DNA from: a virus
Lineage: Duplodnaviria > Heunggongvirae > Uroviricota > Caudoviricetes
DNA length: 48,295 bases
Virus record (IMG/VR): IMGVR_UViG_2874933748_000005
Strand: one strand, 5' to 3'
The position numbers are program-made. Positions 6,001-12,000 of the stretch are shown one piece after another; position 1 is the stretch's first letter, and each line of letters starts with the position of its first letter.

Positions 6001-9000
6001 AAGCGGTGTAAGTGAACTGCAGTTGCCATGTTTTACGGCAGTGAGAGCAGAGATAGCGCTGATGTCCGGCAGTGCTTTTGCCGTTACGCACCACCCCGTC
6101 AGTAGCTGAACAGGAGGGACAGCTGATAGAAACAGAAGCCACTGGAGCACCTCAAAAACACCATCATACACTAAATCAGTAAGTTGGCAGCATCACCAGC
6201 CTTCTTGAGGCTACCACCTGTTTTCAGGTGTCATTCAGACGTGATTTGCCCCAGATTGGGAAAGCACGCTTTTTTCTCAGCTATCGTCCTCTTATTTTGC
6301 CGTTACATTTCTTTTTGCATTCTAATGATTAATTTACAATAATAATATCGGTAATTATTGAGTAATAATAAATTAATTATTGCAAATGTAATTTAATTCC
6401 ATCTTCGCGTTATATTCCAATCTTTAATCTCCGCATGGAACAAGTTGCATGCGTGACTATATTAAGACGACTTATAACCACCAAAACATTTGCTTTGCAA
6501 GCAAAAACAGTGACCATTGACTCTAAGAAAATTCCGATCTATTGTTAGGGTCATCAAAGTTACTTAACAGTATTCCGAAATGAAAATACAAAGCAAGCTA
6601 ATTGTCTTATTAAACATTATTATTGCATTTATATTATTTGAGCTTTTAGCTCAAAAATTTGGTTTGAGTACATTATTTTAAAGCAAGATAAACAATATCG
6701 GGCACTCTAGTTTTTATAATTAACAATTAAACGTCCATAAAATGTTATTTACTTTTCTTCGCTATTGTCATATCTTAATATAGTGGCTTACGCCACTCTA
6801 CTTTCATCACATTTTGTACGTTTATGTACTCGCCATGAAGCTCTTTCATGGCGATTTTTTATTCTTAATCCAAGAACATACTCCCTACCTATAGCAAAAT
6901 CACTTTTTTAACAAAAGAATAACGTATTTAGGTAATCATTACGAATTTACCCTATAGGTGCTACTGGCCATTCAATATCCGGTGCAGTTGATGTATCAAC
7001 ACGGTTCAGCAACACCCGATACTTTTTCCAAGCTTCCAGCAACAAGGTTTCTTTCTCCGTTGCGATCTCCAGATCCACAGCATCCTGAAGCGGCGCTATA
7101 TGCTCACTGGCTACCTGCATCAGGCTGTTTTTTGTTTCTTCCGCCTCCCGGATCCGGAACAGTTTTTCTGCTTCCGTATCCTTCACCCAGGCTGTGCCGT
7201 TCCACTTCTGAAACTCCCCTTCCGGGGATAACCAGGTGACATTTTCCGGTAATGAGCCGAGTTCAGAAATAAATAACGCGTCGCCGGAAGCCACGTCATA
7301 AACCGTTTTACCCCGATGATCTTCAACGAGATGCCACGATGACTCATCACTGTTGAAAACAGCCACGAAACCAGCCGGAATATCTGGCGGTGCAATATCG
7401 GTACTGTTTGCAGGCAGACCTGTATGAGGCGGAATATATGCGTCACCTTCACCAATAAATTCATTAGTTCCGGCCAGCAGGTTATAAATTTTTATGGTCC
7501 GTGCTTGTTCACTCATTCTGAATGCCATTATGCGAGCCTCACAATATAGTTAAATGCGATGTTTTTGACGGTGTTTTCCGCGTTACCAGCAGCGTTAACG
7601 GTGATGGTGTGTCCATGTGAACCAATCGCAACAGAGTGCGTATGAGCACCAATACCGACAGTATGCGCGTGTGCACCCGCAGATGCTGCTGTGCCGGACA
7701 GTGAGTGTGTATGGTTTCCTTCTGAAGATGATTTACCTACCCATTGGGAGGTGCCACTGGTTAATGAGCCACTGATACCAACCTGATTAGTCCCGCTAAC
7801 TTGAGTACTCCCTGCCGGAAACATTCCAGTAGGTTGACTCCCGCTATTCGTTCTGGGCCCAGTCTGACTATGTTGGTGGGCCCCAGCTGAACTTGTAGAG
7901 CCGCTCAGACTGTGCGTATGCGCCCCGGTGTTATTCGTGGATTTAGTGCCGTAATCAAACGACGATGTGGTTTTCGTCCCCAAATCCGTACTGGATGCGC
8001 TGGCGCTGTGGGTGTGCGATTTAATGCCATCCTGTTCCTGAGACAATACGGCACGACCACTGGCGGGCTTGCCCTTAATCGTCCAGCCACGCATATCAGG
8101 GATCACGCCTGACGGATAAGCGGCTGCAAGTTTCGGGTAAGCAGATTTGTCAAAAGTCTGCCCCTGCATCAGGGCATAACCAGACGGAACGGTATCTGAT
8201 GGCCACGGGATTGGTGCACCGACTGGATAAAACTCTGCAGGAGGATGAGCCGAGGTGTAAAGCTGCGCCCACGGCGACCAGTTTGCGTCGGTCGTATCCC
8301 GTCGTGAACGAATAAATGCCGGAGCATGAGCACCGCTTGTACCACTCCAGCCGATGAGTAACTCACCTTCGCCAACGGCTGTCATCCCTTTCAGGTGAAT
8401 GATATTTCCATACGCTGTTGGATATCCGTTGTTATACACCTCGTATAACTCAAGACCTGCTGCCCCCTGCGTATTGTCTGTCAGCGCGGCTACCCGACCT
8501 TTTGAAGCCAGATTAACTGATGATACTGCTGTTCCACCTGACGGTAGCGCCCCGATCTCTGATGCCGTTGGCTTATTTCTGGAGTTATAGTCCCTTCGCC
8601 AGCCAGGTGAATAATCTGTTCCGTGATTAATATAGGTAAACTGGGCGTTGGTTGTTCCGCCACCGCTGGATGTGGTCGGAGTGGTAATGCGGATCGTCAT
8701 CGCTGACTTTATCCCCATTACTTCAATGACAGCTCCGGCGAGATGAATATTACCGCAGCCAGTATCAGTAATGATTTTATTATTGCCATAAGACCAGGAA
8801 CCCTTGCACATCCAGTATGGATGGTTAAATGCTCCCTGAGAATCCAGCCACTCGATAAACTGTGCAGTCGTCCAGTTTCCTGTTGTTGTGCTTACTGACC
8901 CACCGAAGGCACGGCAGGCACCAATATTTTTCGTAAAGGTGTCTTTGCCAGGGATATCCGCACCGTTCTGATCTTTCTGCAGACGTTTCTCAGCATTGTC

Positions 9001-12000
9001 ATTGGCTGCTTTTACTGCCTTTGGCGTTGCCGCCAGCGTTTCAGACGTGCTGTTGGTCGCGCTGCTTAGCTGGATTATCCCTTTCTGTGCTGTCGTTGCA
9101 TCCTGTGCGGTGTATTTCCCGTTAGCCAGGTCATACGCGGCCTTAACGGCTTTTGGTGTTGCCGCCAGTGACTCGGAAGTGCTGTTAGTCGCACTACTGA
9201 GCTGTACTATCCCCTTTTTCGTCGTGCTCGCATCCTCAAGCGCCACGGCGGATGCAATATCCTCTGCCCGTTTTGCCGCTGTCTCAGCGCGCGTTGCTGC
9301 AGATTCCGCCGTACTTTTGCTCTGAGCTGCTGCCGTCGCACTACCAGCAGCCTCTGTCGCCTTCGTGGATGCCGTCGTGGCGCTGCCCTTCGCTGCTGAC
9401 GCCTGTCTGGTCGCCTCATCTTTTGAAGCAGACGCCGATGATGCCGATGACGCCGCCGAACTGGCGGACGATGCGGCAGCCGTTTTTGAGGATTCTGCAC
9501 GGGTTTCCGACGCTTTCGCGTTCGTTTCGGATGTCTTCGCTGCGGAAGCTGACCTCGCTGCTGCCGTGGCCTGCTCAGTGGCTTCGCCAGCCTTCGTTGT
9601 GGCTGTTGAAGCGGATGATGCGGCGCTTTCTGCCGATTTTCCGGCGGCGGTGGCACTGGCTGAGGCCTGCCCGGCACTTGTTGACGCGGCGCTGGCAGAC
9701 GACGCAGCCGCTGTTTTTGAGCCTGCCGCAGCTGAGGCACTCTGTCCCGCTGCCGTTTCAGAAGACCTGGCGTTCGTCTCGGACGTTTTGGCCGCCTTCG
9801 CAGAATTTGCAGCCGCCGTCGCCGAGGAAGCTGCGCTACTGGCGCTTGATGATGCGTTCGTTTCTGATGATTTTGCCGCCTCTTTTGAAGCCGACGCATC
9901 CCGGGCTGAGGTGGCAGCTTCTGACGCTTTCGTGGTCGCGGTGGATGCAGAAGTGGCTGCTGATTGTTGTGACGCTGCCGCATTCGTTTCTAACGTTTTC
10001 GCCGCACCGGCACTGGTAGCCGCCGCGCTTTTTGAGGACTCTGCAGCGGCAGCACTTTTTGAGGCTTCAGTGGCCTTTGTTGATGCCGTTCCTGCGCTGG
10101 AAGACGCTGACTGAGCCGACGAAGCGGCCTGTCCGGCTGACGTGCTGGCTGCACGTGCTGAATCTGCAGCATCAGTCGCATGGGTTGCCGCCTCACGGGC
10201 TGATGTGCTGGCATCGCTGGCTGATTTCTTCGCGGCTGCCGTGTTCTGTGCCACCGCGGACGCGTTACGCGCCACCTCTTCCACCATCAGCTCAAAACGG
10301 CGCAGTGCCTCCGGACGGGCATCATCCTCCGTCATGGCACCGAGAAAATCATTCAGCGTACCGGGTCGGGAATCTTCATACACGGTGATGGTCCCGGCAT
10401 GTGACGGCGGGAATCCTTCCACCAACAGAATAACGCTGTACTGACCGTACTCAACGTCCATGCTGTAACGCCCGGCTTCATCCGGATTTTCTGAGGCCAG
10501 CGTGTTCACCACCACCGTGGTGCTGTTACGTTTTGCTTTCAGCTGGATTGTGCAGTTCTGTACCGGTTTTCCTGTGCCGTCTTTCAGTACACCTGAAATC
10601 TTTACTGCCATATTCACCCCACAAAAAAGCCCGCCTGAACCGGCGGGCTGTCATAACACTGTGTTACCTGGCTAATCAGAATTTATAACCGACACCCACG
10701 ATGAAACCGTCAGTGCGCCAGAGACGTGTTGCTGTGGCGACCGTCATCACTTCCGGTCAGCACATCGTGCGTTTTCCCCTTATTGTCAGTTACGCGGATA
10801 TAATCCCCGGAAAAAGTCGACACACGGCTGTAAGCCACACCCGCCATCGCATACGCGCTGAACCATTCATTCACGCGCACAGACGGCCCCGCCATCACGC
10901 TGAACCAGCGGTTACGCACGGAATCTTCATGCCAGCGGGTATCGCTGTAACGGGTCAGCTGGCGATTCTTGTCTCCTGCATAGCTGAATGACGTCACCAG
11001 CCCCAGCGTATCCGTAAACTCATAACGGTATTTCACGTTAATCCCGTTCAGATCATCACTGCCGGGAACGTTGGTCCGGGCATGAAGATACCCCGCGCTC
11101 AGCGTGGACTGATGTTCAGACGCCCATGCAGGCGCACCGGATACGGCCAGGCAAATGGCTGCGGACAAAATGGCTGCACAAACTTTACGCATAATTACCT
11201 CTCGCTTTTCTGCAATAAAAAAGGCGTCATTCCTGACGCCATTTATTGGGGTTATAAATATTTCAACGAATACTGATGCCGGAAGCCGCTTTTTTGGTCA
11301 CAATCACCGTACAGTCGGTGATATTGCCTGCCCCCTGATTGCCTTTCTGGAAAATCTTAAACTCCAGAGTGACGCTACCACCACCACTAGGCATATCAAT
11401 AACTGCACTGTAACTACCGGGAATGGCACCTTTAGTTTCTCTGGATGCGATTAATACGCCGTTTTTGCGAACTTCAAAACCATAACCCGTGTATCGCGTG
11501 CCTCCTGGGTTATTTCCGCTCCCCGGATCGTCATACGCTATACCGTTAAAAATAATGGGCGGAATAATAATCTGGCGGTCAAAGTTATGATCATCGCTTA
11601 TGGTGACTGTAACCGTCCCGTTTGGTGTTTCCGTGTTACCCCACGTACCAGCCTGTTTCGGAAATGATTTGGATACAGCTTTAACGAAGTCACCTCTGAC
11701 CTGAGTCGCCTCCAGCATGCCCTTAATCGTACAGTTTTCATTTACCGTGACATTGTTGAGCGTCCCGGCGTTCGCATTCACACTGCCACTGATATCCGCA
11801 TTTTTAGCGGTCAGCTTTCCGTCCGGAGTCAGGGAAAATGCCGATGGATTTCCACCGCTGGTAATGGTGGGGGCCGTCAGGCGTTTCAGGAACACGTCGT
11901 TCATGAATATCTGATCGCCCTGACCAACAAACATCGGTTTTGTGTTGCCATTCGCAGGATTAACCATCGCAATCCTGTCCGCCGCCAGCAGCACCTGACT

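Follow-up and report, generated by a model that had tools for sequence, protein, structure and literature searches.

Exchange of modules among the tail fibre genes of phages lambda, P2, Mu, P1 and T4 has been on record since about 1990. The movement of stf segments between unrelated temperate and virulent phages has been termed "well documented", and lambda is known to recombine with Rac and Qin inside stf-tfa (PMC3945230). In the side tail fibre (Stf) of Ur-lambda, a StfN collar has been described, residues 102-393 form the proximal coiled coil in a cryo-electron microscopy and AlphaFold 3 model, and residues 394-529 make up a hinge and a distal coiled coil (PMC12617516). In gp37 of T4, the HxH motifs bind seven iron ions and the tip subdomain between the third and fourth motif binds OmpC and lipopolysaccharide (LPS) (PMC6957217), while the Mu G(-) fibre has been deposited as PDB 8JU3 (Mori et al. 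2024, Virology 593:110017, cited in PMC11821841). Here we compare with these systems the side tail fibre gene, stf, of the Caudoviricetes record IMGVR_UViG_2874933748_000005, a stretch of 48,295 nucleotides that we call the window. With a probability of roughly 0.88, stf (7528..10611, minus strand) is an intact lambdoid mosaic built from shared enterobacterial tail-fibre modules; these modules are already known from phages lambda, P2, Mu, P1 and T4, and the mosaic, while real, is ordinary.

The gene occupies the same position as stf in lambda. A single minus-strand open reading frame (ORF) spans 7528-10617 and, read from the ATG at 10611 to the stop codon at 7528-7530, encodes an uninterrupted protein of 1027 amino acids that begins with MAVKISG, as does Ur-lambda Stf. 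J (11263-14760) and lom (10710-11192) are located upstream of it, and the order J-lom-stf-tfa is common to the window, lambda, PhiR68_2 and Turner according to the ORF map and Pfam. The start of tfa, the gene of the tail fibre assembly chaperone (6947..7528, minus strand, 193 amino acids; PF02413, E=4.6e-44), overlaps the stf stop by one base; this ORF too is intact, and its product is 93-96% identical to the Tfa proteins of lambda, PhiR68_2 and Turner. The window thus holds what defines a lambda-type Stf, namely a PF08400 anchor, the J/lom-stf-tfa locus with its overlapping tfa, and a long coiled-coil shaft. Pfam places PF08400 at residues 1-134, two copies of PF03406, and the PF07484 Collar at residues 798-845; neither the whole protein nor its centre was assigned to an NCBIfam family. 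Solved relatives cover residues 1-94 (PDB 9E7M), 539-723 (8JU3) and 794-1027 (2XGF). A first-pass annotation of the window had described stf as mosaic, and this is borne out by identity to lambda at both ends of the protein and none in its centre.

Anchor, shaft, repeats and central knobs

The N-terminal anchor domain, through which the fibre attaches to the tail, comprises residues 1-134 (10210..10611, minus strand; PF08400, E=1.4e-71). Its first 94 residues match the lambda tail fibre chain of 9E7M (E=1.3e-51), and residues 1-352 are 81% identical to residues 1-352 of Ur-lambda Stf. The anchor is followed by a proximal shaft rich in alanine, serine and threonine (residues ~102-460; 9232..10308, minus strand), which had been noted as a long low-complexity tract. 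Such a composition is indeed present, with 131 alanines, 81 serines and 42 threonines among the 351 residues of positions ~110-460 (37%, 23% and 12%), but the tract is a strict, unbroken heptad coiled coil of a kind already found in lambda Stf, only 15 heptads longer. The Fourier power of the alanine positions reached 43.5 at a period of 3.5 residues and 18.6 at 7.0 residues; none of 1000 shuffles of these positions attained either value (means of about 1, maxima of 8.0 and 8.7, respectively), and Tandem Repeats Finder recovered a 21-nt period in the shaft-coding DNA. Alignment gaps place the ~105 residues in excess of Ur-lambda Stf at residues ~312-416 (9364..9678, minus strand), with ambiguous edges in repetitive flanks. 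The first PF03406 unit starts at residue 466 in the window and at residue 361 in lambda, an offset of 105 residues; because the extra length is exactly 15 x 7 residues, the coiled-coil register is kept. The long form of the shaft occurs in PhiR68_2 and Turner as well, and at a rise of ~0.15 nm per residue we infer that the shaft of the window is ~15 nm longer than that of lambda.

At the shaft's distal end stand two tandem PF03406 units, unit 1 at residues 466-509 (9085..9216, minus strand) and unit 2 at residues 510-553 (8953..9084, minus strand), which share the conserved 25-residue core of the family and were both recovered by Pfam (E=6.2e-37). At the DNA level they appear as a direct repeat of 107-nt copies (8998-9104 and 9130-9236) with a spacing of 132 nt and 74% identity; over the full 44 codons the units agree at 76 of 132 nucleotides and 27 of 44 amino acids, and of the codon differences between them 15 are synonymous and 17 non-synonymous. 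A tandem 44-codon duplication had been proposed at this place. The repeat does exist there, yet it is neither new nor recent: the supposed duplication is a copy-number-variable array of conserved PF03406 units. The number of 44-residue units is four in gpH of the P2 isolate NC_070905, two in the window and in PhiR68_2, and one in lambda and Turner. A DNA alignment of all PF03406 units further assigned the 19-residue tail of unit 1 to the internal units of P2 gpH, and that of unit 2 to the final unit of P2 gpH and the only unit of Turner. A particularly close relative, the 983-residue fibre of an Escherichia coli Z1323HEC0016 prophage (WP_338933567.1), has the same rare tip and agrees with the protein of the window at 967 of 983 aligned residues (98.4%), but possesses exactly one 44-residue unit fewer. 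Unit number would seem to change by unequal homologous recombination between units. The tfa gene beside that allele (L006 3652-4219) is annotated as frameshifted, and that copy may be non-functional.

Seen against lambda alone, with one extra repeat unit and some 250 residues lacking a lambda counterpart, the gene could be taken for the product of a recent, lineage-specific tandem duplication and the insertion of a novel cysteine-containing domain, which together gave rise to an Stf of a new kind and function. The sibling allele that lacks exactly one unit would agree with such a history. However, the units have diverged at 56 of 132 nucleotides, including the 15 synonymous changes, which argues that the copy is not recent, and both the two-unit arrangement of PhiR68_2 and the four units of P2 gpH speak against an origin in this lineage. 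The central segment does not fit a novel insertion either. Residues 547-794 (~248 amino acids; 8230-8973) do lack a counterpart in lambda, as the alignment to Ur-lambda Stf confirmed, and the 61-residue peptide by which the first-pass annotation had characterised this segment is found at residues 566-626. The absence of an inserted domain of ~250 residues from canonical lambda Stf had thus been judged correctly, but the segment is a replacement of lambda residues 394-529 by two known modules and not an insertion. It contains Cys566, Cys602 and Cys619, where the lambda Stf region has no cysteine.

Sequence searches with the central segment, for which a domain search had been suggested as a check, identified both modules. 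Module A, a cysteine-containing knob (residues ~554-690; 8542..8952, minus strand), is shared with P2 gpH, Mu S' and P1 Sv': phmmer matched residues 539-723 to 8JU3 (domain E=1.4e-69), and tblastn identities were 81% to P2 gpH, 85-87% to Yersinia P2-like phages, 71.5% to Mu S' and 74% to P1 Sv'. In these three myovirus fibres, as in the window, a PF03406 array leads into module A with its cysteines in the motifs ACRA.., WMCKG and TGCG; they differ in being baseplate fibres with other N-termini and other distal receptor-binding ends. Module B (residues ~691-793; 8233..8541, minus strand) is shared by tblastn with the Stf proteins of Gifsy-2 and Fels-1, with Goslar, with Vibrio phages and with P1 Sv', in which the order is B then A. 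More generally, an alignment of 32 sequences of database homologues showed that the modules occur singly and in both orders, and they are found in P2, Mu, P1, D108, Gifsy-2, Fels-1, Goslar, Vibrio phages and many Enterobacterales proteins. An AlphaFold2 monomer model of residues 540-806 contains two folded regions, with a predicted local distance difference test score (pLDDT) of up to 89 in A and of 63-71 in B, the latter predicted as a beta-rich domain. When this model was compared with the PDB by Foldseek, 8JU3 was the sole significant match (E=8.6e-20); module A can thus be placed among the knobs of P2 gpH, Mu S' and P1 S' on the strength of its similarity to 8JU3 and a model of moderate confidence. 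R-pyocin fibres and T4 gp34 knobs appeared only as non-significant echoes, and we claim no fold for module B. Pfam, run on the centre alone, returned only a sub-threshold hit to PF21446, the gp34 trimerisation domain (E=0.0036).

The cysteines of the centre are mostly common to P2 and Mu and not invariant across the family, and the comparison of homologues gave no indication of a special role for them. This pattern, the 71-87% identity of the central modules to fibres of P2, Mu and Yersinia phages, the solved relative of one of them and the presence of the whole architecture in 636 E. coli genomes all tell against a novel insertion. The scenario of recent duplication and novel insertion is consequently already largely refuted, and we regard it as very improbable; assembly from shared, previously known modules is the reading that we retain.

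Needle, tip and the question of host range

The fibre's C-terminal part (residues 794-1027; 7531..8232, minus strand) is a collar and iron-binding needle of the T4 gp37 type, with the PF07484 Collar (E=7e-12) followed by serial HxH motifs, seven in number. It matches 2XGF, the receptor-binding tip of T4 gp37, with E=9.7e-82, and residues 795-1027 are 71% identical, with indels, to lambda residues 530-774. The spacing of the motifs is 32, 14, 55, 14, 9 and 9 residues, as compared to 32, 14, 37, 14, 9 and 9 in the seven motifs of T4 gp37. Ur-lambda Stf has eight such motifs, and in length the needle of the window is closer to that of T4 than to that of lambda. The chaperone of the window, in contrast to the T4 gp37 system, is a lambda-type Tfa (PF02413).

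Between the third and fourth motif lies the distal tip subdomain (residues ~915-966; 7714..7869, minus strand), a hypervariable and presumably receptor-binding cassette. The descending needle strand is 84% identical to T4 and the ascending one 77%, but residues 905-965 only ~25%, and the tip is ~18 residues longer than that of T4. Between nearly identical flanks, lambda, PhiR68_2 and Turner have other sequences at this place, and that of the window is unrelated to the tip of Ur-lambda. The description of both termini as lambda-like thus applies to the N-terminus, at 81% identity, and to a C-terminus, at 71%, that resembles lambda and T4 only outside the tip. Only 25 of 5426 complete E. coli genomes contain a 207-nt probe spanning the tip (7708-7914), with an identity of at least 99% in 24 cases, and the best protein match to the tip from an isolated phage was a Mosigvirus gp37, at ~60%. 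By these sequence comparisons, the tip is the most divergent and rarest part of the gene.

A link between fibre mosaicism and host range, which had been drawn in the first-pass annotation, is supported in general terms, but in this fibre the tip is most likely a better candidate for the determinant than the centre, if host range is affected at all. One could argue instead that specificity is set by knobs A and B, for example through lateral binding of LPS or O-antigen: these modules are shuffled among many phages of differing hosts, their structures faintly recall R-pyocin fibres and T4 gp34 knobs, and the Mu G(-) and P2 fibres recognise LPS (PMC11821841, PMC11338833). We consider this quite unlikely. 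In Mu S' and P2 gpH further fibre sequence follows module A, which is thus upstream of the distal C-terminal parts, and the fibre of the window ends in a gp37-type needle, whose tip in T4 is the mapped receptor-binding site. Moreover, PhiR68_2 and the window combine the same A and B modules with different tips, a pattern that is expected if the tip sets specificity. More speculatively, a rare tip carried on a fibre ~15 nm longer could bind a receptor other than OmpC of the K-12 type, such as a divergent porin allele or a type of LPS core, with a porin gene of the prophage (36493-37635) then perhaps acting in superinfection exclusion against such fibres; we see this as a tentative proposal that is possible but doubtful.

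Integrity of the gene in a decayed neighbourhood

Several observations weigh against the interpretation of stf as an intact mosaic of shared modules. At the DNA level, the C-terminal 713 nt, including the tip, were not covered by any isolated phage searched with megablast, and module B alone had no match among PDB sequences at E<=10. The AlphaFold2 model of the centre is only of moderate quality (mean pLDDT of 63), with the inter-module linker and the ends not well modelled. In addition, the gene stands in damaged surroundings. Upstream, lom (10710-11192, minus strand) is a pseudogene that encodes 160 amino acids instead of ~199-206, owing to a frameshifting deletion of 83 nt near 10700 that lies, by comparison with lom of PhiR68_2 and lambda, between two CTGGCG microhomologies. 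Downstream, beyond tfa, there are IS1 (5445-6142) and a fragment of another insertion sequence, an IS3-family transposase (4265-4630).

These lesions raise the possibility that stf is a dead relic that merely looks intact within a decaying prophage, so that the fibre is never assembled and the mosaic has no present consequence. Besides the lom pseudogene and the insertion sequences, this idea draws on an AraC-family gene of low GC content that is broken into two ORFs (4672-5423), also located between int and tfa, on the absence of a Pin-type invertase, which is present downstream of tfa in relatives, and on the fact that prophage stf genes are often cryptic. On the other hand, the 1027-codon ORF is uninterrupted, the heptad register is kept over ~350 residues, all seven HxH motifs are intact, and tfa is both intact and 93-96% identical to functional homologues. 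The stf strand also holds ORFs that correspond to the lambda morphogenesis genes from Nu1/A to J, an assignment made by size and order only. By that measure the virion module looks complete in a decayed neighbourhood. We thus hold the relic scenario to be unlikely, and favour an intact Stf.

The neighbourhood offers several further observations. A hairpin and T-run between lom and stf are conserved with lambda, and the region between IS1 and tfa, up to 6946, is an AT-rich stretch free of ORFs. Closer to the start of the window lies a tRNA-Arg(CCT) gene (2575-2649) that we take to be argW, followed by a tyrosine integrase (2775-3968). The Pin-type recombinase that follows tfa in PhiR68_2 and Turner is absent from the window below tfa. 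These recombinases, together with the homology to Mu and P1, in which the corresponding region lies in a segment invertible by Gin or Cin, made an invertible fibre switch a candidate explanation. It was rejected: a search that allowed up to 3 mismatches found no hix-, gix- or cix-like crossover site in the window, and neither an invertase nor a second tfa/stf segment is present below tfa, so that stf is not part of such a switch. Further away, the porin gene inside the prophage (plus strand, 380 amino acids, Gram-negative porin family PF00267, E=3.7e-153) deserves mention because fibres of the stf family target OmpC; presumably it is comparable to lc of phage PA-2 and nmpC of DLP12. Towards the other end of the window, a LacY-family sugar/proton symporter (43873-45120, plus strand; PF01306, E=2.6e-193) probably lies outside the prophage, as part of the chromosome or as cargo.

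Relatives, junctions and meaning

The features to which the first-pass annotation drew attention are not due to chance, but they are also not peculiar to the window. Of 5426 complete E. coli genomes, 636 match stf over at least 80% of its length, and seven isolated phages match it as well (PhiR68_2, PhiR26_1, SPF_0923, mEp460_ev081, PhiR42_1 and PhiR29_1/2), with the gene annotated as a side tail fibre. Three of these, PhiR68_2, PhiR26_1 and mEp460_ev081, are plaque-forming phages. The layout int-IS1-tfa-stf is shared, at a coverage of at least 80%, by 66 genomes, and the best RefSeq E. coli match over 4000-12000 reaches 97.2%, with none identical. The architecture of stf is hence not new, having already been annotated in cultured phages and hundreds of genomes.

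The closest isolated relative is PhiR68_2 (PV340576), to which megablast aligned 94% of the query at 98.2% nucleotide identity; over the whole protein, 95% of the amino acids are identical. Together with PhiR26_1, mEp460_ev081 and SPF_0923, it is collinear with stf of the window from end to end, with two PF03406 units, modules A and B and the same needle scaffold, but PhiR68_2 differs in its tip cassette (residues ~905-965), its intact lom and the Pin-type recombinase after tfa. Ur-lambda Stf (774 amino acids, KT232076) stands at a greater distance: it occupies the same locus and shares the anchor and coil (81%), one PF03406 unit, the collar and needle (71%) and Tfa (93%), whereas the window adds 15 heptads and a second PF03406 unit, has A and B in place of residues 394-529, and carries seven HxH motifs instead of eight.

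Taken together, these comparisons suggest how such a fibre may be built and may work. If Ur-lambda Stf and T4 gp37 serve as models, three Stf chains would form one fibre, which would dock on the tail through the N-terminal StfN domain (residues 1-~100) and extend as a proximal shaft formed by the heptad coiled coil of ~360 residues. The two PF03406 repeats would link this shaft to knob A, of the P2 gpH/Mu S' type, and knob B, of the Gifsy/Fels/P1 S' type, which would take the place of the lambda hinge and distal coiled coil, and the gp37-type collar and seven-iron needle would then carry the distal tip. Once folded with the help of Tfa, the fibre could first touch the cell surface reversibly with its tip, most likely at OmpC and/or the LPS core, and such a contact could speed adsorption before J binds its receptor. 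Cassettes, in turn, could be swapped by homologous recombination at conserved borders, one in the PF03406 repeat and the other where the collar begins (YPVGAPIPW).

These borders bear on phage engineering. The natural junctions of the mosaic lie in the PF03406 repeat (lambda ~K385-R393) and at the collar start (lambda S528/F530). Working lambda-P2, -K1F, -K5 and -KL106 Stf chimeras (Brodel et al. 2024) were built at these points: lambda Stf residues 1-393 were fused to P2 gpH at R393, in the PF03406 repeat, and other fibres were joined at S528 (PMC11338833). Both natural junctions thus coincide with the fusion points chosen by engineers. The lambda-P2 chimera differs from the natural fibre in that it keeps the distal end and LPS specificity of P2, whereas the protein of the window returns to a gp37-type needle. 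As a discovery, stf carries little weight. It is, however, a clean natural example of a mosaic fibre, and those who engineer host range can use its allele series to compare one PF03406 unit with two, or different tips on one and the same shaft.

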